This document shows, piece by piece, positions 1-48,592 of a stretch of 52,088 nt of DNA. A program made the translations under genes and the position numbers. The stretch is from a virus: the IMG/VR virus record IMGVR_UViG_3300035156_000020, positions 1 to 52,088 of that record; one strand, 5' to 3'. The notes beneath the pieces were generated by a model. The model had not been told where the DNA came from, did not search any database, and worked only from the letters and a program-made list of their open reading frames with translations. Numbering within the stretch: the stretch's first letter is position 1; every line of letters begins with the position of its first letter.

Positions 1-127
1 AAGGTTGTGACCACTAACAAGAGTGTTCAATTCCATTTGTTTCCTTTGTGTTGAGACATCTGAGGGAAGGGGTGCTCAATGTCATAATTTTTGTGAGATA
101 TTATGGAGAGGTAATGCACCTATTAGC
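1..127. repeat. Terminal overlap copy 1, identical to 51962-52088. Most likely a circular-assembly overlap rather than a biological terminal repeat.
   Basis: Read directly: bases 1-127 recur verbatim at 51962-52088. The tailspike ORF 50198-51997 starts inside the right copy. Confidence 0.9.
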
Positions 128-128
128 A

Positions 129-155
129 CCCACCCCCTCACCCCCTCCCTCCCCC
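129..155 (-). other. G-quadruplex-competent tract on the minus strand (C-rich on plus; i-motif candidate).
   Basis: Plus strand has C-runs at 129-131, 133-137, 141-145, 147-149 and 151-155, separated by 1-3 nt. The minus strand reads G5-A-G3-A-G5-TGA-G5-T-G3. Confidence 0.7.
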
Positions 156-480
156 TTCGACATACAGAAATCTCCTAACATGCCTCCTGCTGCATTTGAC
201 ATAAGATGGGTTATGCGAAATACCCTGGCATACATATTGCTTAGGCACAGTCTCATGTAATGCTCATGACTTGTAGTTATATAGGCTAGAGGGATAGCGC
301 AATACACTAACCGTCCTATATTCATCATCCAGGTAGGCAATGCACTAGCAATGCATGGGTATTAACACATGAGGGGGTGCATGAGGATTAATGGCTATGA
401 CATAGCATCTATGCCTGTTACGTCCCTAGCGGGACAATAAATACCCTTGCACCGATGAGGTGCGTAATGCATTAAACATG

Positions 481-493
481 CTGCTAACAGCAG
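481..493. repeat. Short hairpin / inverted repeat CTGCT-AAC-AGCAG, a member of a four-copy family.
   Basis: ctgctaacagcag is read here. Its exact reverse complement is at 44843-44855. Related gtgctaacagcac is at 4857-4869 and gagctaacagctc at 44921-44933. All four are intergenic. Confidence 0.6.
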
Positions 494-579
494 GGGTGTA
501 ATAGGACTAACGCTATATGTAATACCAGGAATCTAGCTATCACTGGACATTAGGTGTTGTATTGATGGGTTAATATGTG

Positions 580-610
580 TTGACTGTTGAGAGAGGTTTG
601 TGTGTATAAT
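580..610 (+). promoter_or_regulatory. Sigma-70-like early promoter candidate.
   Basis: TTGACT (580-585) and perfect TATAAT (605-610). The spacer is 19 nt, which is long. It lies about 70 nt upstream of the first plus-strand ORF. Confidence 0.45.
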
Positions 611-679
611 GCTCTTAGCGCGCGAGTGTGCGTAACCAGGTAAAAGACAAAATCCACTACTAGACAAGGAAAAGGCAAC

Positions 680-838
680 ATGAATACTCTCTACATCACC
701 GAAACAGAGGAAGGTTTTGAACTCATAGGGGAAGATGGGTTACATCAAGGAATTGCCGAAACGATGGGCGAAGCTATCACCTCTGCAAAGCAGCATGTAG
801 AGCTTGGTAACTACACTTCCTTCTGCATTGCTGACTAA
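680..838 (+). CDS. Hypothetical early protein, 52 aa (MNTLYITETEEGFELIGEDG...).
   Basis: ATG with a purine-rich aggaaaagg just upstream. The frame is open to TAA at 836-838. It falls below the 60-aa cutoff of the ORF track. Confidence 0.5.
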   Translation: MNTLYITETEEGFELIGEDGLHQGIAETMGEAITSAKQHVELGNYTSFCIAD

Positions 839-874
839 CAACACACGCCCCGAAAGGGGCAATTAGGAGCTGGC

Positions 875-1051
875 ATGAAACAGCTAGACAAATATCTATC
901 CAAGTATGCAGAGGATGAGCAAGCTATCATCTTGGAAGGCTTACAGGCAAAGCTGGATGAATTGCCTATTACGTCCAATCCATATGTTGAGGGACAAGGG
1001 GATTGGATGTTATGGGATGAGGGATATACATTAGACCTGTTGACGCCATGA
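875..1051 (+). CDS. Hypothetical early protein, 58 aa.
   Basis: AGGAGC Shine-Dalgarno 5 nt upstream of the ATG. The stop overlaps the next ATG (ATGA). Confidence 0.55.
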   Translation: MKQLDKYLSKYAEDEQAIILEGLQAKLDELPITSNPYVEGQGDWMLWDEGYTLDLLTP

Positions 1052-1173
1052 ATAGGTTTATCGCTATCATGTTTTGGCTTTGGGTGTTGCTCTGCCTTGA
1101 TGCAATCATCTATTGGGAACACTCGTTTATCTTTCGTGCTGCATTTGCCATCATCAAATACTTGGAGATTTAA
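1048..1173 (+). CDS. Small hydrophobic protein, 41 aa (MNRFIAIMFWLWVLLCLDAIIYW...).
   Basis: ATGA start/stop coupling to the upstream ORF. One clear hydrophobic helix. Confidence 0.45.
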   Translation: MNRFIAIMFWLWVLLCLDAIIYWEHSFIFRAAFAIIKYLEI

Positions 1174-1174
1174 T

Positions 1175-1432
1175 ATGCCTAAATACAATGGTCACAAAAA
1201 CTTTGCACATTGGAATGTGTCCCTCTGGCTTAACAATGACGAATCACTCTATCGTATGTGTAAGCACATGAAGCAACACTATGCCAAGGCGCGCATGGTA
1301 TTTGATGAACGTCGCTCTACATTCATAGCTAGGCAAGTTATCCGGCGTCTGAAGGATGAAGGGATAACCCACACTCCAGACGGAATCAAATATAGTACAT
1401 CGTCTGTAGAGGCAGCAATGCGGGATATGTAA
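1175..1432 (+). CDS. Hypothetical early protein, 85 aa.
   Basis: Internal ATG of track ORF 1097-1432, preceded by GGAG 8 nt upstream. It starts 2 nt after the previous stop. Confidence 0.6.
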   Translation: MPKYNGHKNFAHWNVSLWLNNDESLYRMCKHMKQHYAKARMVFDERRSTFIARQVIRRLKDEGITHTPDGIKYSTSSVEAAMRDM

Positions 1433-1454
1433 GACAACAGCAGCAATCAAACAA

Positions 1455-1482
1455 GGGGATACTTCGGTATCCCTTTTCTTTT
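1455..1482 (+). terminator. Rho-independent terminator.
   Basis: GGGATAC (1456-1462), loop TTCG, GTATCCC (1467-1473), then ttttctttt. Confidence 0.8.
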
Positions 1483-1696
1483 ACCTGTAGGGCTTGCGTA
1501 TAGGCTCTATACGGCATTATCTCCAGCAGGTTGACCACTTCCCCCCATTGAACAGCTATCACGCCTTGTAGAGCCTCCTATGGCCTACAACAGACGTGCA
1601 TGTACGCATCCAGGTACGCGCAAATAACACACTTGGATAGGTTTTGTCCTACAAATTGTGTGTAGGAGCGCACTTACAACACTTGCCAAATAGCAT

Positions 1697-1726
1697 TTGA
1701 CTTTCCTGCTAGAAGCTTGCTATAGT
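1697..1726 (+). promoter_or_regulatory. Sigma-70-like promoter candidate.
   Basis: TTGACT (1697-1702), 18-nt spacer, TATAGT (1721-1726). It sits in ORF-free DNA. Confidence 0.6.
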
Positions 1727-1834
1727 TCAACACATCGGGACAGCAGCAACGTACCGATTCCGCAAAAGCCCATAAGAATCAAGGGTTTAGCGGGGTTTCC
1801 AATAGTCACTAGTTGAGCATACGCAACAAAGTGC

Positions 1835-1862
1835 TTGACAGAAATCAGTGAGTATGTAATGA
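1835..1862 (+). promoter_or_regulatory. Sigma-70-like promoter candidate.
   Basis: Perfect TTGACA (1835-1840), 16-nt spacer, TAATGA (1857-1862). Like the 1697 promoter, it is followed a few nt later by CAACAC. Confidence 0.45.
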
Positions 1863-2589
1863 TGGCAACACTTCGCAGCGATAACGATTCGCAGCAAAGC
1901 GGCGGGAAAGTAGGAACTAGCCTACATGGGCAATTCCGAAATTAAACGCAGCACGAAGGCAGCTATCACCTGTAGTTAGTAGCAGATGCACCGATTTCAG
2001 CAGCAAAGGTTGTAACGTAGGGGACACATAATGCTGTCCGGCTGTCCTACGCTCTTTAAAAATCTACTTGTAGGCTCAGTATGGAGGGCGATGTTATCTC
2101 CCCCTATTTGCCTCCCCTAATAGCTTGTGTGTGTCGCACAGTAGCTATCATCCCTTGGCTAGTCCGAAGGATGGTATGTAACTGTCTCCAGACAAGGGAC
2201 GATGAGAGGAAACATGCGCAGTGGTGCATGGGATAGGGGAATAAGAGAAAGCATTGCTTGCCATACGGACGACTAGCGGGAATCTCGCTAGGAATAATTG
2301 CACCCTACAAGGATGATGTTCTTTAACAATTTATAGGAATATGGGCATGGACAACACACGTTGACCGGGCTGAATCAATCCGCCAGGAATTTGACTCCCT
2401 AGATGGGAGACTAGCCGAACCATCATATAGTCAGAAAGACTAGCGCATCGGAAGTAAGCCCCTTGTCCTCAATATCCGCACCCCATATTCCCTTATTAAA
2501 CGCCGTTCCTTAATTGGAACCTAGTGAAGATAAGCGGCAAGGCTCTAGCAATAGAGCTTTGTACGCTAGTCCACTAAGGAGCAACAAGC

Positions 2590-2769
2590 ATGAGCAAGAA
2601 AGCGGAATACTTCATCAAACAGAAATGCCTTCGTTACCATCGCAATCAAATCAGCGATGCAATTTATGATCACACTACCCGAAAGCTTCATGGATACTTC
2701 CCTAAATGGCCAGAAGCATTATGGGAAAGCCAAGGCATCAAAACATCCGAGCAATTGAATACTCGCTAG
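2590..2769 (+). CDS. Hypothetical protein, 59 aa (MSKKAEYFIKQKCLRYHRNQ...).
   Basis: AAGGAG 7 nt upstream of the ATG. Just below the track cutoff. Confidence 0.6.
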   Translation: MSKKAEYFIKQKCLRYHRNQISDAIYDHTTRKLHGYFPKWPEALWESQGIKTSEQLNTR

Positions 2770-2852
2770 ACATTCCAGCAGATAGGGGATTCCTCCAGGA
2801 ATTGCCTTATCTAGTGCAATGTCGCACTAACATTCTAATGGAGCACACTATC

Positions 2853-3404
2853 ATGGCATTCGACAAAAACACCTACGATCAACACTTCAATGCTCAACTG
2901 GTTAAACTGGTTGACGCTGAGAAAATCACCAAGGCAATCCTGCGTGAACTGTCCCGCACTACGCTGGAAGCATTGCACGTTACCGAAGACATCGGCTACG
3001 TGAACCAGGTTGTTGCCGCCCTCACTCCAGTGAACAAGAAAGTGGCAATCCTGTTCTATACGGAATTCACCGGGTTCCGTGAAGAGAAGGGCATTTTCAC
3101 CAAGAAAGACAAGAAAGCCTACGACGACAAGAAAGCCATGTGTGTCGAATGGCTGGAAGACCCGAACAACAACATCTGGTCGTGGGCAGAAAAAGAAGTG
3201 GACATTGCCCCCAAGGATTTCGATATCAAGGCAGTGACGAAAACCATGGAACGCATGCTCAAGAAGGGCGATGATGCAGGCTTCACTCAAGCCGACATCC
3301 TGCGTGCCGTGTTCGCTGCTGGCTTCGATACCGATGCTCTGCTGGCTGTCATGTCCGAAATGACCAACGACAAGCCGGAAGCTGCGCCAATCGAGCAAGT
3401 CTAA
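2853..3404 (+). CDS. Hypothetical protein, 183 aa.
   Basis: Track ORF 2706-3404, trimmed to the ATG at 2853, which has GGAG 9 nt upstream. Protein-like composition. Confidence 0.7.
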   Translation: MAFDKNTYDQHFNAQLVKLVDAEKITKAILRELSRTTLEALHVTEDIGYVNQVVAALTPVNKKVAILFYTEFTGFREEKGIFTKKDKKAYDDKKAMCVEWLEDPNNNIWSWAEKEVDIAPKDFDIKAVTKTMERMLKKGDDAGFTQADILRAVFAAGFDTDALLAVMSEMTNDKPEAAPIEQV

Positions 3405-3440
3405 GGCCCAAGCTCCGTCTGTACATATGGTATAGACGTA

Positions 3441-3466
3441 AAAAAGGGGAGCATCTAGCTCCCCTT
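3441..3466. terminator. Hairpin terminator between convergent genes. The U-tract is present only for the minus-strand transcript.
   Basis: aaaaa GGGGAGC atcta GCTCCCC tt. Read on the minus strand, the stem is followed by TTTTT. Confidence 0.65.
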
Positions 3467-3485
3467 GCTGTAACACATCTTAAGA

Positions 3486-3986
3486 CTAGTCTTTGAGTTC
3501 TTCCAAAAGCGTTTGTACCTCGCCAAGCTCTTTTGTAAGTACTTCGCACTTCTCCCGCAAGCCATTGCGAGTCTCTTCCACTGCATCAATTTCATCGGCT
3601 TCCTTCCAGAAGGACGACATCGCCTGTTTCTGCGAGTCGAAGCTATCATCAATTTCTGGCCGATGAATGATGCGTCCGAACAGGTCGAAGAACACAGGAC
3701 GGAACACCCGCCCATCTGCTGCATTGAAGCCCTTCTGTACGCTTTCCACCAAGCCCAGCACCAAGCCATCATCCATCACATGAACCGTGTGAATCTTGGC
3801 AGCAAAGCTCTTGAGCGTGGAATCGTCAACGTAGTGCGTCCGGCCTTCCAGATTGCGCTGCGCCTGATTCAGGGGCAAGCCGGTGCGCTCAGCGAACAGT
3901 TTGAAGCCAGCTTTGCTCATGGCGCTGGCCATATCAGTGGTGCTCATTGCTGGAACTTCTGCTGCTGCTGGTTTCTTCGTAGCCAT
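3486..3986 (-). CDS. Hypothetical protein, 166 aa. It is the only minus-strand gene inside the plus-strand arm.
   Basis: GGAGAG SD upstream of the ATG. Coiled-coil-like C-terminus. The competing plus-strand ORF 3513-4043 is Cys/His/Phe-rich and looks like a shadow ORF. Confidence 0.65.
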   Translation of the reverse strand: MATKKPAAAEVPAMSTTDMASAMSKAGFKLFAERTGLPLNQAQRNLEGRTHYVDDSTLKSFAAKIHTVHVMDDGLVLGLVESVQKGFNAADGRVFRPVFFDLFGRIIHRPEIDDSFDSQKQAMSSFWKEADEIDAVEETRNGLREKCEVLTKELGEVQTLLEELKD

Positions 3987-4081
3987 TTTGTCTCTCCGGT
4001 TAGTGGTACGTCACATGACGTAGACACAGTATCAGGTAGCTAAATTCGTTTGTCAACACCCACACACAAGGAATCGTACAC

Positions 4082-4315
4082 ATGCTCACCCTCTTGGATC
4101 AAGTCTTGCCTGTCGCTCTGCTCATCCTGCTGGCCCTGCTCGCTATCATCATCGGCTGGATTGTGTGGCAGGAAGTGCAGCTTCTCCGTATCGAGAACAA
4201 GCACAAGACCGAAGGCATGGAGATTGACGTTAGCAAGCCAATCATCGACCTCTGGCACAACCAGGTAGCGCCTCAAAGCGTTTCAGCAGCCCAATATCTC
4301 AGCACGATTGCATAA
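4082..4315 (+). CDS. Small membrane protein, 77 aa.
   Basis: N-terminal hydrophobic helix LPVALLILLALLAIIIGWIVW. AAGGA lies upstream. Confidence 0.55.
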   Translation: MLTLLDQVLPVALLILLALLAIIIGWIVWQEVQLLRIENKHKTEGMEIDVSKPIIDLWHNQVAPQSVSAAQYLSTIA

Positions 4316-4365
4316 GCAATTGAGCACAACCCGCCACTCCAGGCACAACTAGAAGGAAGTAAATC

Positions 4366-4662
4366 ATGACCAAAGCAACCAAAACCGTCCGTGGCGCTGC
4401 TCGTGCTGCTCGTCGTAACGCTGGCAATCGTCAGCCTGTCGCTATCATCGGCCAGCAAGCCGAACGTGTGGCAACGAACATGCGTGAAGCCTTCTGCAAC
4501 ATCCAGATCACCGGATATGACGCCGGTAAGCGCGACATCGTGGAAACCATCCTCACCTGTGCCAAGCAGAACGCTGGCAACAACAAAGTGGGGCGTGGCT
4601 GGACTGCCAACCTCACCCCTCAGACGGTGCGTAAGCTGACGTTTGAAGGCGTCTTCGCCTAA
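4366..4662 (+). CDS. Hypothetical protein, 98 aa, with a basic N-terminus.
   Basis: GAAGGAAG SD upstream of the ATG. Several overlapping alternative-frame ORFs look less protein-like. Confidence 0.65.
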   Translation: MTKATKTVRGAARAARRNAGNRQPVAIIGQQAERVATNMREAFCNIQITGYDAGKRDIVETILTCAKQNAGNNKVGRGWTANLTPQTVRKLTFEGVFA

Positions 4663-4665
4663 CAG

Positions 4666-4854
4666 GTGATTAACGCTGTCTTTGAACATCAAGACGGATA
4701 CCGCTTCAATGAAGTGTACGGAGGGAAGAAAGCTAAAGCTCAATTCCTCCGAGCATTACGCAGTGACAAAGCTACGCTTATTCATGCGATTGATGTAGAC
4801 CGTGCTTATGTGATTTACCCCTCTAATCTTCCTGATTATCGTAGGGTTCAGTAA
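4666..4854 (+). CDS. Hypothetical protein, 62 aa (GTG start).
   Basis: Track ORF. It starts 4 nt after the previous stop. Confidence 0.45.
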   Translation: MINAVFEHQDGYRFNEVYGGKKAKAQFLRALRSDKATLIHAIDVDRAYVIYPSNLPDYRRVQ

Positions 4855-4856
4855 TT

Positions 4857-4940
4857 GTGCTAACAGCACATTCATTCTAATTAACGCTAGTTAGAAGTTT
4901 GAAGTTTTATTATTTGAGCTAAAAGCTCTATTAATACTCT
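4857..4940 (+). promoter_or_regulatory. AT-rich conserved intergenic element, copy A. Function unknown: promoter, operator or origin-like.
   Basis: Hairpin gtgctaacagcac (4857-4869), TAGTTAG (4888-4894), TTTGAAG (4898-4904), 11-nt AT spacer, hairpin gagctaaaagctc (4916-4928), then atactct. The same architecture is at 44843-44951. Confidence 0.6.
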
Positions 4941-4983
4941 GATTTTCTTCTTTACTGGACAAATAAATATACAGGAGTTGTAA

Positions 4984-6471
4984 ATGCCTTTTAATGTAGG
5001 CGATAAGGTGCGTGTTATCCCCGGTGCAGCAGGGCCAGTTACCGGGCAGTACATCGGCATGACCCTCACGGTGGAGCGTGTAAGTGACTTCGGGAACATC
5101 AAGCTCCAGGAGATCGTGGGGGGTGGTTACTACGGCGCTCACAAGTTTGAGCTTATTCCTCAACCTGCTGTTGTCAAGGTTGGTGATTGGGTCGAATGCA
5201 TTGATGCGGCAGACAGCCTCACCTTGCGCATTGGTCGTCAGTACAAGGTGGAAGCTGTGTACCCTAGCGGATCGTATAAGCTGGAGGGCTTCGGCACTCG
5301 CTATCATCCGTCCCGCTTCAAGGCTGTTCCTGCGCCTAAGGCTGTGGCTGTTGCCGATGAATTCCCCTTCGACCCTGCTCTGTGGTATCCACAGGAAGGT
5401 GACAAGGTGTATGTGGTGGGTAAGTGCCCTAAAAACCACTATCCGGGGGGCATGGATAAGTATGTGAATGACGGAAAGCTGTACAAAGTCTATTCCGTGT
5501 ACGAGCCGCTTATCTACCTGAGCCATGCTAATGGCGACTCGTATTCCTGGGATAAGAGCGTCTTGCGTCCTGAATGGGCAGGCAAGAAAGCACAGCCCAA
5601 GCCTGCAACCTTGGCCGTACCGGATGGGCCTGTGGCCCCGTATGTGCCACCTGATGTGCCTGCTGAGCCAAACAGCACCCTCCGTGAAGACCTGTTCAAG
5701 CGTATTCCCGGTGGTGGCCTGTGTGACTTCGCCTTTGAAGGCAAGACCGGCATGCAAGACTTCCAGACAGCAGCCCCGTGCCATGCTGCCCTGTCCCGCC
5801 CTAACGTGGGTGCTGAGGTGGTGGCAATGGCGTATTGCCTCCGTAGTGATGTCAAGCGTTATGGGGGTGCTGACATCAAAGCGTACAAACGCTACATGGA
5901 CTACATCTTCAATCGCTCCCCTTGGGCACATGCATTCCTCACCAAGGATGTGAACGAAGCCATGGAGAAGGACATCCTCATGAACGTGGAAGTCAATCGC
6001 TTCGTCATGGCTGGTGCTTGCTTGGCTGTCCGTATGGCACACGAATACAGCAATCGCCCTACCGCCTTCGTCTACTTCGTGGACAAGGGCATTGGTGAGC
6101 ATGCGGCATGGGTATTGTGCTGTGCTCTCACCGTCCGTGGTAATAACTTCTCCCGTGCTGGCATGGGTGGCGGTCATGACCTGATTGACCATCATCGTGA
6201 CATGGCTGAACTGGTGAAGTTCTTCCAGGTGGGCTATCACACAGCACAGGGGACTGACCCCAACCCCTACCGACTGGCACATGGGGGCTATCGTATTGCC
6301 GATCCTGTGGCGAAGTATACGAGCAACGCTCTACATAGCCTCCGTGGCTGGCTGGATGCCAACATGAAGGCCACTGTAACTGGCGAAGGCTGGAACAAGA
6401 AATCCGCCATCACCGAAGAAGCAGTATTAACCGCTGCTGCAACCCTCAACAAACTCATTACCGGAGCGTAA
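4984..6471 (+). CDS. Cassette gene 1: 495-aa protein. It has three tandem SH3/KOW-like beta-barrel repeats plus a C-terminal domain of about 270 aa with unknown function.
   Basis: AGGAG SD. Repeats begin VGDKVRVI, VGDWVECI and EGDKVYVV and end FELIP, RFKAV and VLRPEW. Confidence 0.85.
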   Translation: MPFNVGDKVRVIPGAAGPVTGQYIGMTLTVERVSDFGNIKLQEIVGGGYYGAHKFELIPQPAVVKVGDWVECIDAADSLTLRIGRQYKVEAVYPSGSYKLEGFGTRYHPSRFKAVPAPKAVAVADEFPFDPALWYPQEGDKVYVVGKCPKNHYPGGMDKYVNDGKLYKVYSVYEPLIYLSHANGDSYSWDKSVLRPEWAGKKAQPKPATLAVPDGPVAPYVPPDVPAEPNSTLREDLFKRIPGGGLCDFAFEGKTGMQDFQTAAPCHAALSRPNVGAEVVAMAYCLRSDVKRYGGADIKAYKRYMDYIFNRSPWAHAFLTKDVNEAMEKDILMNVEVNRFVMAGACLAVRMAHEYSNRPTAFVYFVDKGIGEHAAWVLCCALTVRGNNFSRAGMGGGHDLIDHHRDMAELVKFFQVGYHTAQGTDPNPYRLAHGGYRIADPVAKYTSNALHSLRGWLDANMKATVTGEGWNKKSAITEEAVLTAAATLNKLITGA

Positions 6472-6472
6472 C

Positions 6473-7087
6473 ATGAACGTCCTCATCATCAATGGCGGCA
6501 GCGACTATCGCAAGCTGTTTGAATCCCTCGGCCACACGATCGTGGCTAACGTAGAAGATGCTCAACTGGCTGTCTTCACTGGCGGCGCCGACGTTTCCCC
6601 CAAGCTGTACGGGGCTGAGAAGCATCCGTTCACTGGTGTGGATGCACGCCGTGACATCATGGAAAAGACGCTCTACGAGGCTCTGCTGGCTCGTAAAGTG
6701 CCAATGGTGGGCATCTGCCGTGGTGCTCAATTCCTTAATGTCATGTCCGGTGGTGCGATGTACCAGCACGTAGAAAGCCATACCCGTGCCCACTACATCA
6801 TCGACCAGGTTACGGGGGAAACGGTGTATGTGTCGTCTACCCATCACCAGATGATGAAGCCATTCGGCATCTTCCACCTCATTGCTACCAGCAACAACAA
6901 CGGCAATCGTGAATGGTTTGAGGGCAGCGTATTCAAGCGTGATGTGGCCGATCAAGACATCGAAGTGGTGTTCTACCCCAACACCAAATGCCTGTGCTTC
7001 CAGCCCCATCCTGAATTCGATGGTGCGGAATACGAAGGCATGAAAGCCTACTTCCGTTCGCTGCTCAACCGTTATCTGGAGGTGTAA
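6473..7087 (+). CDS. Cassette gene 2: class I glutamine amidotransferase fold, peptidase C26 / gamma-glutamyl hydrolase-like (PuuD-like).
   Basis: Nucleophile elbow VGICRGAQFLNV and the downstream SSTHHQMM motif typical of the C26 family. Confidence 0.8.
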   Translation: MNVLIINGGSDYRKLFESLGHTIVANVEDAQLAVFTGGADVSPKLYGAEKHPFTGVDARRDIMEKTLYEALLARKVPMVGICRGAQFLNVMSGGAMYQHVESHTRAHYIIDQVTGETVYVSSTHHQMMKPFGIFHLIATSNNNGNREWFEGSVFKRDVADQDIEVVFYPNTKCLCFQPHPEFDGAEYEGMKAYFRSLLNRYLEV

Positions 7088-7089
7088 TC

Positions 7090-7461
7090 ATGACTCTTGA
7101 CGAGTTTTGGACAGCTACCGGGATTGGCCGTTGGGACATGCGTAACAACGACGACCACCTCCCGTGTTTCGCTAACCGTTATTACGTGAATGGGCGTGTA
7201 AACACCCCCGAACTCATCACGGCATACATCGACCTCGCAAAGCAAACTTGCACTAACGATGTCATCGTGTTCAGCGTGACGGAGAAAGATGAATGCTGGG
7301 ATGTGTGGAAGCAGTACGCCAAGGACAACAAGAGCGTGTTCAAGGTGGTGCAAGGTGGTTCCATTCATGGTGTGTATCTGTGCCGGATGTACATCTACAC
7401 CAAGCCGAAGGAAGAACGTAAGTTCCATGAGAATAACATCGGCAAGTACCGCGCTCGATAA
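7090..7461 (+). CDS. Cassette gene 3: hypothetical protein, 123 aa.
   Basis: Track ORF. It starts 3 nt after the previous stop. Confidence 0.7.
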   Translation: MTLDEFWTATGIGRWDMRNNDDHLPCFANRYYVNGRVNTPELITAYIDLAKQTCTNDVIVFSVTEKDECWDVWKQYAKDNKSVFKVVQGGSIHGVYLCRMYIYTKPKEERKFHENNIGKYRAR

Positions 7462-7510
7462 ATAACAGGTGGCTTAGGCCGCTATCATTAAACATTAAAC
7501 AAGGATTGAT

Positions 7511-8869
7511 ATGTGCGGTTTGGTTGGCATTGCAGGTGATTTGAACAACGTTCACGAGAAGGTGCTTAAAACCCTGCTCGTCCTCGATTCCCTCCGTGGT
7601 GAGGATTCGACTGGTGTTGCCTTCGTTAGCAAGTTCATGGATGAAGTGACGGTTGCCAAGTCGTTGGGTGACCCGTTCAACCTGTTCAACGATGGCAAGT
7701 TTCACAAGGCCCAACAGCGTCAGAATAAGGTGATGCTCGGCCACAACCGCTACGCTACCTCCGGTGGTGTCAACAAGGCGGGTGCCCATCCCTTCGACTA
7801 CGATACGCTGGTAGGTGCCCACAATGGCACTCTCGGCGCTCGTTATCGTCTGGATGATGACCGTGATTTCAAGGTGGACAGCCAGGCGCTCTATCACAAC
7901 ATCGAAAAGAACGGTGTTAAGGAAACCATCCGTCGCCTTGGTGGTCAAGGCAATGCATGGAGCTTGGTGTGGTGGGACAAGATTGAAAAGACCTTGAACT
8001 TCCTCCGCAATCAGGAACGTCCGATGCATATGTGCTCATCGGAAGATGGCAAGGCACTGTTTTGGGCATCGGAAGCTTGGATGTTGGATGTGGCCTTGGC
8101 TCGTCACAGCATCAAGCACAACGAAATCTTCCAGACCGCTGTAGACACTCACCTGAGCGTTTACATCAACAACAAGGGCGAGCTTGGCAAGCCTAAGGTT
8201 GTCGAAGTGAAGGCAGACCCCGTTGTTGTGCCGGTTGTGCAGATGTACCCACATGCCAAGCCTAAGCACATCCCGAAACCCCAACAACAGCAAAGCAATG
8301 TTGTTGTCCTGACCAAGGATGCACAGACCCCCGGTGAGGTGGGGCAGGCAAAAAAGTACGAAGCCGTAAATCCAAAAGGATCAGCATCAAACACCTCCTA
8401 TCTGTCAGCCACAATTGACCGCACCTTTGAAATCCTGTGCGAGAAGCGTGATGCTAACGGTGGCCGGTATCTGAGCCTGTTCGATGCGAACGAACCATAC
8501 ATTGACATTCGCCTCTATCCATGCAAGCAAGATGAAGTCTTGTTTCAATTGGAAGGCTCGGACATTCAAGGGCGTGTTACGAGCTTTGACAGCACGGATG
8601 GCGGCGCGCTGCGTCCCTACTACAAGGTGAGTCCTTGGACTGTCAAGTATGACGCCACCCTTGCCGAAGCAAACATTCCTGATGTCGTAATGGATCATCT
8701 TGGCCGTTTGGTTACGGCTAAGGAATGGAATAAGAATTACATTGCTTGCGCTTGGTGCAGCAGTGGTTTGAATCATCTGGAAGACAATCGCTTTACCGCT
8801 GGTGGTGATTGCCTTTGCCCTGCATGTGCAGCAGATGAAAAAGTAACTGAGAACGTCACCCTAATCTAA
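7511..8869 (+). CDS. Cassette gene 4: Ntn-type (class II) glutamine amidotransferase domain, fused to an unknown domain of about 220 aa with a terminal Cys4 zinc ribbon.
   Basis: Starts MCGLVGIAG (Cys directly after the initiator Met), then GHNRYATSG and GAHNGTL. The C-terminus has CAWCSS...CLCPAC. Confidence 0.85.
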   Translation: MCGLVGIAGDLNNVHEKVLKTLLVLDSLRGEDSTGVAFVSKFMDEVTVAKSLGDPFNLFNDGKFHKAQQRQNKVMLGHNRYATSGGVNKAGAHPFDYDTLVGAHNGTLGARYRLDDDRDFKVDSQALYHNIEKNGVKETIRRLGGQGNAWSLVWWDKIEKTLNFLRNQERPMHMCSSEDGKALFWASEAWMLDVALARHSIKHNEIFQTAVDTHLSVYINNKGELGKPKVVEVKADPVVVPVVQMYPHAKPKHIPKPQQQQSNVVVLTKDAQTPGEVGQAKKYEAVNPKGSASNTSYLSATIDRTFEILCEKRDANGGRYLSLFDANEPYIDIRLYPCKQDEVLFQLEGSDIQGRVTSFDSTDGGALRPYYKVSPWTVKYDATLAEANIPDVVMDHLGRLVTAKEWNKNYIACAWCSSGLNHLEDNRFTAGGDCLCPACAADEKVTENVTLI

Positions 8870-42366: not shown

Positions 42367-42849
42367 TTACTTAGCTTTGCTAATGTAAGTCAGAATCAGC
42401 GTTGCTTTACCAGCAGTACCCGTAACAGCAGGAGTCGTACCAGTCAGAGCTTTGTTAAGCTTCGACACAGCGGTGACACCAGTGCCCGAGTTGATTGCCA
42501 GTTGGCCTGTACCTGTCGAAGCAGGAATCTTAGTACCAACCGAACTCAGTTCAGCTTGAGTCAGTGCAACACCGTTAGCAACTTCCGAGCCTTGAATACC
42601 ATACACGACACCAGGAGTAGTACCTGTCAGCGTGAATGCCTCATCCACTCGCAGCACTGCCTTAGTCAGCAGAGCACCCTTTGGAAGGGTGACCGGGGGG
42701 ATGAATGCCGTGTTAAGGAACTCAGGCGTGAGGCTAATCGACAGAACATGATGAGAATTCTCACCATGCTCCAGACCGATCGAACCACCCGTTTCACGAG
42801 CACCATATTGGTTAAAGACGCCGATACCAGCTTTATTTTCGTAAGACAT
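42367..42849 (-). CDS. Probable head decoration or minor capsid protein, 160 aa.
   Basis: Immediately downstream of the major capsid gene. Gly/Thr-rich. Confidence 0.55.
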   Translation of the reverse strand: MSYENKAGIGVFNQYGARETGGSIGLEHGENSHHVLSISLTPEFLNTAFIPPVTLPKGALLTKAVLRVDEAFTLTGTTPGVVYGIQGSEVANGVALTQAELSSVGTKIPASTGTGQLAINSGTGVTAVSKLNKALTGTTPAVTGTAGKATLILTYISKAK

Positions 42850-42862
42850 ATTTTATTCCTTA

Positions 42863-43804
42863 TTAGGCGTTGATAGCCGAGGTGATGTACACACCAAGGG
42901 TGTCAACACGTTGAGTGCCGAAGCCGAAGCGCGACGAGGTGACGAATTCATCACGGCGGAGGTCTTTGTTACGTTCGCCCTCAACCTTAGGCATACGACG
43001 CCATGCAGCCATCAGAGGCTTGGTGTTATCGTCAGCGACACACATGAAGACGTTAGCGACAGCATTGCTAACCTGAGTGGTGCCATCCGAGAACGTACCA
43101 GTTGCCAGGCGGTTCGATGTGATGATGTTCCAGCCATACAGATTCATCAAGAACTGGTGGTCACGAGTGAAACCGTTCTGGAGGATTTGTTCTGCAAATG
43201 GGGTGACATCACGACCAATGTTCACCAGACCGTCAAGCGTAGCGCCTACGATAGGGTCAACGATGGCAACACGACCAGCCATGGGGACGTTAGCTTTGTC
43301 GAATGCCAGCTTCATCTTAATGAAGGCATCCAGAGTAGCAACGTTGTTCGTAGCAGCCGAGGCGATACGGTGAGCAAAGCCATTAACGGTATTAGCGTTG
43401 GCATTCACTTGGGCCGTGTTACAACGACGCAGGAAGCGCGATTCAAACACCTCTTGGATAGCACGGGTCGATTCAGTCGAACGTGCCGACATCAGGGCTT
43501 CAACTTGAGCGCCATCTTCACGGAGTTCATCAGTGACATACCATGCATCGCCAACGTAGTCGGTAATGGTGAGGGTCACTTCACCCGATTCGATTGGGCT
43601 GTAGTCGAACGGAACTTCTTCAGCACCGTCTTGAATGGTGACAGTACCAGTGGTCTTAATATGTAGCGTGTTACCCGAACCGAAGTCCGACACGTTACGA
43701 TAGAACGAACCAGGAAGCATACCGTCATGGAGGTTCTGGAGGATGAAGCTAGAATACTGTTCTGCTTCGATAAATGCAGTGCTGTTAGAGCGATTTTGCG
43801 ACAT
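42863..43804 (-). CDS. Major capsid protein (HK97 fold).
   Basis: 313 aa. Its position after the scaffold gene, and its resemblance to PaP3/LUZ24-type major head proteins (from memory). Confidence 0.85.
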   Translation of the reverse strand: MSQNRSNSTAFIEAEQYSSFILQNLHDGMLPGSFYRNVSDFGSGNTLHIKTTGTVTIQDGAEEVPFDYSPIESGEVTLTITDYVGDAWYVTDELREDGAQVEALMSARSTESTRAIQEVFESRFLRRCNTAQVNANANTVNGFAHRIASAATNNVATLDAFIKMKLAFDKANVPMAGRVAIVDPIVGATLDGLVNIGRDVTPFAEQILQNGFTRDHQFLMNLYGWNIITSNRLATGTFSDGTTQVSNAVANVFMCVADDNTKPLMAAWRRMPKVEGERNKDLRRDEFVTSSRFGFGTQRVDTLGVYITSAINA

Positions 43805-43818
43805 TTATGTTTCTTTCG

Positions 43819-44655
43819 TTATTTGAAGTATTGAGCGTAAACCTTGGGGTTGGTCAGGTCATGTACAGACATTCCCTTTGCTTCCAGTTCTGCTGCCATT
43901 CGTTTTGCTCGGTTCATAGACTCTTGAATGTCTTGTGACGTTGCACCAACGATGACACCTTTTGGATTGCGACCAATGTAGGTTTCCGATTGTGGCGTGA
44001 AAGCTGCCGTGTTTACTGTGCCCTGTGTGGTGAGTGGTTGGTTCGGCTTAGATGCCGCTTTGTCTTGAACACCGAGCATAGTGAGAACCGCTTTAGGAGA
44101 CTTGGCCGCTAGGACATTCATCTCTTGTACCGACATACCCAACTCTTGAGCCTTGCCGTAGAATTTAGCTTCTGCATCTGCCCCGAATACACCCTGAAGG
44201 GTGGATACAACGGAGGCTACGTTTGCTTCGGCTGTAAGCTTCTGTTCACGTTGGCTGAGGGTACGGTTCACAAGTTCAGCAAGTGCCGTTTCATCCATAA
44301 CAGGTGCAGTGGTGTTCTGGTTCTGTTGTGGTTGACTCGTGAGAGCAGCAAGTGTTCGTTCCAACTCAGCTACACGTTCGGCTTCTTTACGCAGTCGTTC
44401 AATCTCTGCATCCTTCTCTGCTGTCTGTTGACGCAGGCTTGGGATGAATTCTTGAGCGTTACGAAGACCTTCAAGTGCGGCTTCAATGGTGGAATACTTC
44501 TGTTCTCCACGCTCGTTCTTAATCGAAGAAAGCAGGGTAAACGCTTGATTCGCTTCAGGTTGAGCGCCTACCGGATTGCTACCAGTAGGAGGGGTTTGTG
44601 CCTGGGTAGGCGTATTAGTTTCTGTACTACCGAAGATACTAGGCTGGTCGGCCAT
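43819..44655 (-). CDS. Scaffolding protein, 278 aa.
   Basis: Track ORF 43819-44733, trimmed to the ATG at 44655 (AAGGAAAC upstream). The 26-aa extension is a translation of the tRNA gene. Ala/Gln/Glu-rich and helical. Confidence 0.8.
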   Translation of the reverse strand: MADQPSIFGSTETNTPTQAQTPPTGSNPVGAQPEANQAFTLLSSIKNERGEQKYSTIEAALEGLRNAQEFIPSLRQQTAEKDAEIERLRKEAERVAELERTLAALTSQPQQNQNTTAPVMDETALAELVNRTLSQREQKLTAEANVASVVSTLQGVFGADAEAKFYGKAQELGMSVQEMNVLAAKSPKAVLTMLGVQDKAASKPNQPLTTQGTVNTAAFTPQSETYIGRNPKGVIVGATSQDIQESMNRAKRMAAELEAKGMSVHDLTNPKVYAQYFK

Positions 44656-46987: not shown

Positions 46988-48592
46988 CTATCTAAAGCTG
47001 ACACCACCGAAGCGACTGTTGAACTGGATGACATTCCCTCCAGAGTCGCTTGATCGTGAGCGTTTGGGTTTAACTGCAATCTCAACAGCAGATGCAAGGG
47101 CATCCTTAATGTCGTCATGTGCAGGGCGTGCTAGGACAAGTTCCTCTTCCAACATATCAATGTATCCACCCTTGAAGTGCCAGATTTGCATATTGTCGTA
47201 ACGGTGTTCCAGAGCAGCGGCAATACGTTCTTCCTTGTTGCCGTTCTTACCTGTAGGCCGATGTTCCTCAATAGAGAGCCTTAAACCCTCTTCACGGAAC
47301 TTATCCTTCAGGTCACGTACAATGACAGCCTGAGCGACGGTAACCTCAGCACGGAGCTTAGTGAACTCCCACTTGCTATGGAGGTCTGCTACGTGTCGGA
47401 AGTACTCACTAATCTTGTCACTCTTGAAGCAATCAATATCGAGGACATAGATGTAGTTATCAGCATCAACACCAATCACAACGATTGCGCTGTTGTCACT
47501 CTTCTTGGACAGGCTGAATGCGAAGTCAATGGAAGCATAGACATTCAAGCGGTTACGCTTGTAATACCAATGCCCACCCTCCTGCTTGAGGAACTTACGG
47601 TCGTAGTATTGGAACTTGGAACGGTCAATGCGGTTACTGCCAGGATCGTTTGGATCGTTGTAATACTGTGCATAGAACTGAACCCTGTCCTCATACTGAG
47701 CACGGATACGGGCCAACACCTGCCTATCGAAACCAAAGAACTTCTTATCGCTAGGACGCATTGCCTTAGGCCAGATGAATACATCATCCTTCTCTACAGC
47801 GTATTCCTTGATTGACCAAACAGGTACACGGTCTAGGACATTGCCCTCTTCGTCGTACACATCAAACTCTTGGTTACGCCAGGTGTGGTAGATGTCGTTA
47901 GGGTGATAGCGAGTCCCACAGGCCATCGTGAAGCCACCAGCATTAAGAATGGAGGTGAACTGCGAAGACTTCTTAGAAACGCTCTCACGGCCTTCCTCGG
48001 TGTATGCATTCTCAGGAACCACCAAGTCATCTGGAACAAGGATGTCAGCGTGCCAGCCAGTAGTGTTGGTAGTCAGTCCAGCAGTGGAGATTGTCGAATC
48101 TCGGATACCTTCCTTCTTACGCTTGGGGTGGTCAATGGAGATTGCATCTTGACTCCACTTCTCCCTCTTGCCCTCTTGAGGGTGGACATATTCAGGGAAG
48201 TATCGCGTAAATGAGGCGTTGGTCAAGATGTTCTTGATTGCGTATAGCTGGGTAATTGCCAAACCTGCGGTAGCAGATACATACAGCACCGTCACCTCTG
48301 GATGTCGTGTTACAACCCATGCAACCCAAGTAGCGACCATGTGACTCTTTAAGTGAGCACGCGGAAGCATGATAAGCTTGTTGGTAATATCCGCTTTGCC
48401 CTGTCCGAACAGACTGTACTCTTGCATCCATTTGAAGATGTCCTTATGAATATCCCCGTACATATAACCAGGGTTGACCAGCCGAGCAAAGAAGAACAAA
48501 TCATCTAGTGCAGCTTGTCGAATTTGCTTCGCTTCCTCTGGCATCTTCTCTAGCTTGAGAAGTGCCTCCTTTTGCCACAACTCATCCATCAA
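46988..48592 (-). CDS. terL: Terminase large subunit.
   Basis: 534 aa. Its position between the small terminase and the portal. ATPase-like LPRAHLKSH region, VPDDLV (Walker B-like) and a C-terminal nuclease-like region. Confidence 0.85.
   Translation of the reverse strand: MMDELWQKEALLKLEKMPEEAKQIRQAALDDLFFFARLVNPGYMYGDIHKDIFKWMQEYSLFGQGKADITNKLIMLPRAHLKSHMVATWVAWVVTRHPEVTVLYVSATAGLAITQLYAIKNILTNASFTRYFPEYVHPQEGKREKWSQDAISIDHPKRKKEGIRDSTISTAGLTTNTTGWHADILVPDDLVVPENAYTEEGRESVSKKSSQFTSILNAGGFTMACGTRYHPNDIYHTWRNQEFDVYDEEGNVLDRVPVWSIKEYAVEKDDVFIWPKAMRPSDKKFFGFDRQVLARIRAQYEDRVQFYAQYYNDPNDPGSNRIDRSKFQYYDRKFLKQEGGHWYYKRNRLNVYASIDFAFSLSKKSDNSAIVVIGVDADNYIYVLDIDCFKSDKISEYFRHVADLHSKWEFTKLRAEVTVAQAVIVRDLKDKFREEGLRLSIEEHRPTGKNGNKEERIAAALEHRYDNMQIWHFKGGYIDMLEEELVLARPAHDDIKDALASAVEIAVKPKRSRSSDSGGNVIQFNSRFGGVSFR

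Follow-up and report, generated by a model that had tools for sequence, protein, structure and literature searches.

Introduction

The ribosomal RNA (rrn) operons of Escherichia coli are headed by the tandem promoters P1 and P2 and by a leader of the order boxB-boxA-boxC, carry a further boxA in the spacer, enclose their 16S and 23S RNAs between leader-trailer helices, and are transcribed with the participation of the antitermination complex rrnTAC, composed of NusA, NusB, NusE, NusG, SuhB and S4. The boxA element is necessary and sufficient for the assembly of this complex, and, in the current model, the NusB-tethered boxA holds the leader strand close to the RNA exit channel for pairing with the emerging trailer, the 16S leader-trailer helix requiring more than 17 bp (PMC10250234). 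A comparable arrangement is described here for a virus, whose complete IMG/VR record IMGVR_UViG_3300035156_000020, 52,088 bp in length, was taken as a whole as the window of the analysis. Its stretch 1483-2589, about 1.1 kb without an evident gene, is quite probably the untranslated leader of the main early operon transcribed by the host polymerase, laid out like an rRNA operon, with Nus-factor (rrnTAC-type) antitermination and leader-trailer folding.

Among the phages, the nut sites of the lambdoid group carry an RNA-borne boxA, which recruits NusB/NusE and makes the polymerase termination-resistant; there, boxA precedes boxB, and the lambda-type boxA is degenerate. In phage T7, the early operon is headed by strong tandem host promoters (A1, A2, A3); a single canonical rrn-type boxA lies some 60 nt beyond A3, and then come a hairpin and, before gene 0.3, an RNase III site; in a passage of PMC3709561 that cites Savalia et al. 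2010, mutations of the T7 boxA are stated to have a phenotype. The literature searches on boxA in non-lambdoid phages returned no description of the layout reported below. What is new here is the position of boxA directly against a helix, the same cassette in the Zobellviridae, another phage family, and the presence of two small closed domains, each with its own boxA and helix.

Organization of the Non-Coding Unit

An earlier reading of the DNA from its letters alone (the sequence-only reading) had pointed to this stretch as devoid of open reading frames (ORFs) of at least 60 amino acids (aa), and none was found in any frame between 1450 and 2706. On the left, the unit is bounded by the intrinsic terminator that this reading had also recognized (1453-1482, + strand; a 10-bp stem at 1453-1476 and a T tract), which closes an operon of four small genes at 680-1432; the following unit is, therefore, an independent transcription unit. 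The terminator is kept in the relative L227 and is substituted by a different GC hairpin with a T tract in L223 and L226. The right edge is formed by a Shine-Dalgarno sequence, AAGGAG, and the first ORF of 59 aa (2577-2769, + strand), whose ATG at 2590 had been rightly taken for the first convincing start.

The two sigma-70 promoters announced by the sequence-only reading are present on the + strand: P1 at 1697-1726 (TTGACT, an 18-nt spacer and TG-n-TATAGT, with the predicted start at ~1733) and, 138 bp after it, P2 at 1835-1863 (TTGACA, a 17-nt spacer and TG-n-AATGAT, with the predicted start at ~1870, inside GGCAACAC). Each of them scores 10/12, has the TG ahead of the -10 element (extended -10) and is followed by CAACAC, as had been noticed. 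The promoter-like sites as such are not enriched in 1-5000 (10 versus 7.6 +/- 3.0 by chance), and in the promoter scan, P1 and P2 were the best, and the only strong, + strand sigma-70 sites in 1-22,400. The -35 and -10 elements of P1 together with the upstream TACAACACTT are kept in L227, L223 and L226; P2 is nearly invariant in the five closer relatives, and GGCAACAC, situated 3' of P2, is invariant in five relatives. A T7-type RNA polymerase gene was not found in the PF00940 search, in which the positive control also gave nothing; with no such gene found, early transcription must rely on the host enzyme. A third promoter of the P2 family was observed at 581-610 (TTGACT ... GAGAG ... TGTGTATAAT), ahead of the first four small genes; it was skipped by the promoter scan owing to its 19-nt spacer, it has no boxA after it, and its operon stops at the terminator 1453-1482.

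Downstream of the promoters, two boxA sites are located on the + strand, which the sequence-only reading had overlooked. The site boxA1 (2051-2061, GCTCTTTAAAA) has 15 contiguous nt identical to the E. coli 16S-23S spacer boxA, and boxA2 (2318-2328, GTTCTTTAACA), taken with its 3' flank, has an uninterrupted run of 15 nt in common with the rrn leader boxA of E. coli, the E. coli sequence being read directly from the rrnH leader. Both are exact matches to GYTCTTTAANA, the functional gamma-proteobacterial boxA consensus (PMC5725501), and they are the only two such matches on both strands of the 52 kb, against 0.23 expected (0.08 with a stricter pattern). They lie 180-590 nt 3' of the predicted P1/P2 starts, with no conserved ORF between, and the boxA2 core TCTTTAACAATT is invariant in five relatives.

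The predicted transcript folds with a minimum-energy z of -5.3, compared with -3.5 for the opposite strand, and forms two closed domains, each of which starts a few nucleotides after a boxA. The domain D1 (2067-2311, + strand, 245 nt) is separated from boxA1 by 5 nt and from boxA2 by 6 nt; its closing helix, 2067-2074/2304-2311, continues through further helices as a long arm, and the domain has a mononucleotide-shuffle z of -5.7, with covariation in helices 8-10. In its 3' part, just ahead of boxA2, stands a boxB-like hairpin (2273-2291, pairing 2273-2280 with 2284-2291, + strand; helix 14, with compensatory changes in 3 of the 4 pairs), followed by a conserved single-stranded UAAUURCA; the same pair of elements was seen by eye in G001 and L070. 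The domain D2 (2336-2491, + strand, 156 nt) begins 7 nt after boxA2 and is closed by a 10-bp helix, 2336-2345/2482-2491 (helix 15), where 8 of the 10 pairs show compensatory changes. A small 5' hairpin of the P2 transcript (1877-1893, + strand; helix 3, 4 of 5 pairs compensatory) exposes a conserved TAACGAY loop. A 3' hairpin with a GCAA loop (2522-2576, core 2537-2547/2552-2562, + strand; the covarying helix 22) stands directly before the ribosome-binding site and is not a terminator, because no U tract follows it.

Two of the hairpins named by the sequence-only reading, GCTCTA-GCAA-TAGAGC and CTAGCG..CGCTAG, thus reappeared in the minimum-energy fold and covary (helices 22 and 14); the third, GTAGG..CCTAC at 2019-2053, exists in the sequence, but its segment is not conserved, falling into a gap block of alignment A3. 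As no terminator was found between D2 and the first gene, the folded RNA is to be regarded, at the minimum, as the leader of the early message; neither a strong terminator nor a further strong + strand sigma-70 promoter was predicted for about 20 kb beyond 2590. The phage layout may be summarized as a boxA, a leader strand at 0-7 nt, a 150-250-nt domain, a trailer strand and, 0-8 nt further, the next boxA. The boxA-helix arrangement of the rrn operons is thereby reproduced in miniature, and the stretch is read therefore as an rrn-mimicking leader.

Conservation, Covariation and the boxA-Helix Adjacency

At the DNA level, the region had no match among 50,697 phage records, and the query 1-8000 gave short coding matches only. 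The distant relatives, about 20 contigs, were gathered with the 183-aa downstream protein (2853-3404) as the marker, and the closer ones (L223, L226, L227 and L230) came from a protein search at 60-66% identity. The latter four contain the same ~1.1-kb gene-free gap, their DNA aligns to the window at 66-80%, and P1, P2, boxA1, D1, boxA2, D2 and the 3' hairpin are conserved among them. Most of the ~20 related contigs have one to three same-strand boxA sites at 500-1800 nt 5' of the marker gene and none elsewhere, a few having a variant boxA or none; in all relatives, boxA is strictly strand-specific. In the blastn comparison of the distant relatives with the window, only the P2 promoter and the boxA sites were detected, and these elements are, therefore, under the strongest selection.

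The alignment of the five sequences yielded, with RNAalifold, 138 predicted pairs, 70 of them with compensatory changes. The paired cells made up 85.7%, compared with 72% in the shuffles and ~39% for the slid partners; the 70 pairs with compensatory changes stand against 36 and 14-23, and the covariation score of 0.50 against 0.25 and ~0.1, respectively, and none of the 500 shuffles reached the observed pairing or covariation values, the contrast being inflated by the fact that the consensus structure came from the same five-sequence alignment. The leader-trailer pairing is kept by compensatory changes in helices 8-10 and 15-18, and several single-stranded blocks are conserved in the alignment. 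The consensus folds better on the + than on the - strand (-99.6 versus -77.4 kcal/mol for the whole, -35.0 versus -15.5 for D1, and -13.4 versus -3.0 for the 3' hairpin).

Among the distant relatives, the covariance model R1, built from boxA2 and D2, matched G001 alone over its full length (E = 0.003), its other matches being boxA-driven fragments. The domain sizes, ~218-247 nt and ~154-176 nt, recur in the window, L223, L226, L227, G001 and L070. No known RNA family was recognized: the Rfam 15 covariance models gave nothing at E <= 1 in 1-5000, and on seven relatives produced tRNA/tmRNA-like matches only, located elsewhere.

The adjacency of boxA and helix was documented statistically across the clade with 26 boxA sites in 13 relatives, and also in a cultured phage (PA11, below). 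For contiguous helices whose start lies no more than 14 nt beyond boxA, the best score had a median of 11, compared with 7-7.5 at random positions, and a score of at least 10 was reached by 73% of the sites and by 5-7% of the controls. The same algorithm recovers the 26-bp leader-trailer helix of the E. coli rrnH 16S RNA, which starts 1 nt after boxA, and gives control-like scores for 79 chance matches to a 14-nt boxA word in unrelated viral contigs; the scan of these contigs with this one word serves as a negative control, its matches being mostly due to chance, and not as evidence of spread. Composite helices with bulges reach ~24-37 bp in the window. In the more distant relatives L072, L073, L085, L087, L088, L094 and L095, the trailer strand was observed to overlap the -35 element (TTGACA) and the spacer of the next promoter, and the successive promoter-boxA-domain units are therefore interlocked there.

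Comparison with the Known Systems

The phage unit resembles the E. coli rrn operons in its tandem sigma-70 promoters ~110-140 bp apart, in the hairpin before boxA, in its two boxA sites that correspond to the leader and spacer variants of E. coli, in the 5' strand of a long-range helix placed 0-7 nt after boxA (1 nt in rrnH), and in a second boxA right after the first enclosed RNA. It differs in the enclosed RNAs, which are 156-245 nt long and unrelated to rRNA (no Rfam match), in contiguous helices of 8-12 bp versus 26 bp in rrnH, and in the continuation of the unit into protein-coding genes.

The likeness to the T7 early region, drawn by the sequence-only reading, turned out to be apt, inasmuch as T7 has the same boxA after A1-A3, and the combination of tandem strong host promoters and then boxA at the head of the early operon is present here. 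However, T7 has a single boxA with a short local hairpin (36-nt span) in place of the two boxA sites with closed domains of 156-245 nt, and its leader is ~170 nt long versus ~0.7-0.85 kb here; moreover, T7 goes on to transcribe with an RNA polymerase of its own and inhibits that of the host, and a gene for such a polymerase was not found in the present phage. The region would work like the T7 early region without the phage being a member of the T7 group, its kin being the Zobellviridae. In comparison with the lambdoid nut sites, the predicted action of an RNA-borne boxA that recruits NusB/NusE and renders the polymerase termination-resistant is shared, whereas the order is hairpin then boxA instead of boxA then boxB, and the boxA is of the full rrn consensus.

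In phage phiEco32 (Kuravirus), genes 124 and 125 are separated by a gene-free early stretch of ~1.9 kb, whose transcribed strand bears four rrn-type boxA sites, two of the four being followed by an 11-bp long-range helix. An amidoligase cassette and a phage sigma factor are common to the two phage groups; phiEco32 belongs, however, to another family, and there is no sequence similarity to the region described. In the Pseudomonas phage PA11 (Zobellviridae), two boxA sites occupy the early strand within the early region 43,500-44,150; a long-range helix starts immediately after each of them, and the trailer of the first helix ends at the second boxA. In contrast to the present phage, the helices of PA11 are near-perfect, 24-26 bp long, span 299 and 242 nt and enclose, instead of non-coding domains, the small protein genes ORF054 and ORF055 with good ribosome-binding sites.

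Proposed Mechanism and Alternative Explanations

In the mechanism that we propose from this layout, the host sigma-70 RNA polymerase would initiate at the tandem P1 and P2, and the nascent boxA1 would be bound by NusB/NusE(S10), which, with NusA, NusG and SuhB, would give a fast, Rho-resistant antitermination complex. The boxA tether may then keep the 5' helix strand, 5-7 nt downstream, near the RNA exit channel until the 3' strand emerges 245 nt (D1) or 156 nt (D2) further on and the two can pair, as has been proposed for the 16S and 23S leader-trailer helices; boxA2 would emerge 6 nt after the D1 trailer strand, and the complex would be reloaded or renewed. The polymerase so modified could then transcribe the remaining leader and the early genes beyond it, which start at 2590, its Rho resistance spanning the untranslated 0.7-0.85 kb and beyond. 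Transcription, Nus-factor binding and antitermination are what we infer from sequence, and the predicted helices are probable RNase III sites, at which D1 and D2 may be excised and the 5' end of the mRNA trimmed. The terminator-ended, boxA-free upstream operon suggests a division into immediate-early and antiterminated delayed-early genes.

Several observations weigh against the rrn-like leader. The contiguous closing helices are short, 8 bp in D1 and 10 bp in D2, and an 8-bp helix alone is not significant, since 32% of the control positions reach the score of 8; the rrn leader-trailer helices and the classic RNase III sites have about 17-27 bp. D2 folds equally well on the - strand, and the covariation count suffers from the shared alignment mentioned above. 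L076 and the early region of the Citrobacter phage CVT22 have no recognizable boxA, and PA11 and one cassette of L073 enclose small genes. The identity with the host's own boxA is an assumption.

The covarying, closed and discrete character of D1 and D2 also fits another explanation, which overlaps with the leader reading and extends it, namely, that the two domains are stand-alone non-coding RNA (ncRNA) genes, excised by RNase III at their helices and active in trans at an early stage of infection, perhaps in the manner of a decoy or sponge for a host factor, with boxA serving mainly for their synthesis and folding. The conserved domain sizes and single-stranded blocks, the absence of a conserved ORF and the fact that the same layout releases stable RNAs in the rrn operons speak for it, and the free early small RNAs or decoy RNAs suggested by the sequence-only reading might arise by RNase III excision. 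However, D2 and the first gene are not separated by a terminator, the sequence turns over so fast that only the promoter and boxA survive in the distant relatives, and neither an Rfam family nor a known target corresponds to the domains. As the corresponding helices of PA11 and L073 surround protein genes, the enclosed RNA need not have its own function, and we regard the stand-alone genes as rather unlikely. The hairpins just 5' of both boxA sites (2019-2050 and 2273-2291), together with the four small early proteins of the preceding operon, might also recall nut-like sites for a phage-encoded N-like antiterminator, rather than for host factors alone. The boxA matches, however, the rrn consensus in full, and such a boxA suffices without N (PMC10250234), the order of hairpin and boxA is that of rrn and not of lambda, and the hairpin before boxA1 is not conserved; in the four small upstream proteins, no N-like arginine-rich motif was noticed by eye, no formal search being run. 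This reading appears very unlikely.

A function of the DNA itself, be it as an origin of replication, as a site of packaging or as an array of promoters titrating the polymerase, with the inverted repeats as DNA features, would agree with the gene-free state of the stretch, with its place close to where the two genome arms diverge, and with its many inverted repeats and strong promoters. It is highly improbable in view of the numerous G-U pairs, the better consensus fold of the + strand RNA, the strand-specific boxA in all relatives and the compensatory changes that keep the pairing and not the sequence; the titrating array, which the sequence-only reading had proposed, is given no indication by a region with two promoters only. 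Still less credible are unannotated micro-proteins expressed from the promoters as small early genes. The largest ORFs inside the region have 51 aa (2081-2236 on the + and 2148-2303 on the - strand), the former, starting with ATG, fills most of D1, and the equivalent helices of PA11 and L073 do enclose small genes with good ribosome-binding sites; nevertheless, no ORF of the region has a Shine-Dalgarno sequence like those of the real genes of the phage, the ATG at 2081 is absent from all four close relatives, and no ORF is shared in position, frame and start by the five, nor has any a convincing ribosome-binding site. The 63 stop-to-stop segments compared by tblastn with the distant relatives revealed no conserved translation, with one weak match on the - strand over the P2 promoter DNA. 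The micro-ORFs were, therefore, rejected in distant and close relatives alike, in agreement with the non-coding status suggested for the stretch at first.

The untranslated rrn-like leader of the early operon thus remains the preferred explanation. The sequence-only reading held true as to a non-coding, structured RNA under host-type promoters, and missed the boxA pair along with the adjoining leader-trailer helices.

Genomic Neighborhood and Accompanying Motifs

The record has a 127-bp end overlap that indicates a circular assembly, and the genes run rightward until ~24.7 kb and leftward from ~25 kb. The virion proteins are ~27-30% identical to those of the Pseudomonas phages PA11 and O4 and of CVT22 (Zobellviridae), whose genome plan, including a phage sigma factor, is that of this phage. 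The tRNA scan detected a single tRNA-Thr, distant from 1483-2589. The 85-aa product of the last gene of the upstream operon (1175-1432) belongs to DUF7249 and has relatives in phages of Ralstonia and Enterobacter as well as in over 50 unrelated viral contigs; it was dropped as a synteny marker, being a widely exchanged mobile small early gene. The 59-aa product of the ORF at 2590 did not match the equally placed 57-aa ORF of L227.

The intergenic segment 2769-2866, just 5' of the 183-aa gene, shows 90% identity to positions 2155-2250 of L227, being far better conserved than the flanking genes (~60% aa identity). An imperfect hairpin, GATAGGGGATTCC..GGAATTGCCTTATC, lies within this segment, which probably acts as a regulatory element. 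The contigs L228, L229, L231, L075 and G001, which are independent assemblies, start 36-130 nt 5' of the marker gene, possibly due to an assembly effect of a conserved or structured intergenic element or to a real end. At the junction of the divergent arms, the motif TAATGCACCTA, followed by a C-rich run (CCCCCTC...), was seen at 85-155 of the window, at 47707-47751 of G001 and at 42800-42850 of PA11 (L102), and could be a packaging site, a genome end or an origin element. The hairpin GCT-AAC-AGC recurs at the boundaries of gene blocks (479-493, 4856-4870, 44845/44923), including the site just 5' of the first early operon.

The three copies of GCTATCAY listed by the sequence-only reading are situated at 1555, 1962 and 2144. 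Genome-wide, the motif occurs in 21 copies versus 3.2 expected, with 20 of the 21 on the transcribed strand of each arm. Further sites include 536, 773, 923, 1063 and 47910, seven copies are within the first 2.2 kb, four of these being non-coding, and the non-coding region of L070 has three copies, too. No longer consensus was found in the sequence surrounding the copies, and the TATCAY part could be a weak -10 element.

Implications

The gene-free gaps that head the early operons of lytic phages are usually left unannotated, and here such a gap receives a precise and testable anatomy. The juxtaposition of boxA and a long-range helix underlies the current, still unproven, model of the rrn antitermination complex as an RNA chaperone that assists the leader-trailer helix to form. 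The phage cassettes, of 150-300 nt, are non-essential for the cell and naturally varied, PA11 having a 24-26-bp version, and are, therefore, far easier than the 16S rRNA for testing this model. They may also define new ncRNA families, and compact insulator parts with anti-Rho and self-processing properties could be made from them. It is conceivable, if doubtful, that the phages have copied the whole logic of rRNA maturation, with a boxA-loaded polymerase as the tether of the leader strand, pairing of leader and trailer during transcription and release of the enclosed RNA by RNase III, producing in the first minutes of infection two small, stable and so far undescribed ncRNAs (D1, ~245 nt, and D2, ~156 nt) that would act in trans on the host. 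For the biology of the family itself, the leader, as we read it, would mean that phages without an RNA polymerase of their own take over the rRNA antitermination signal of the cell together with its juxtaposition with a long-range helix.

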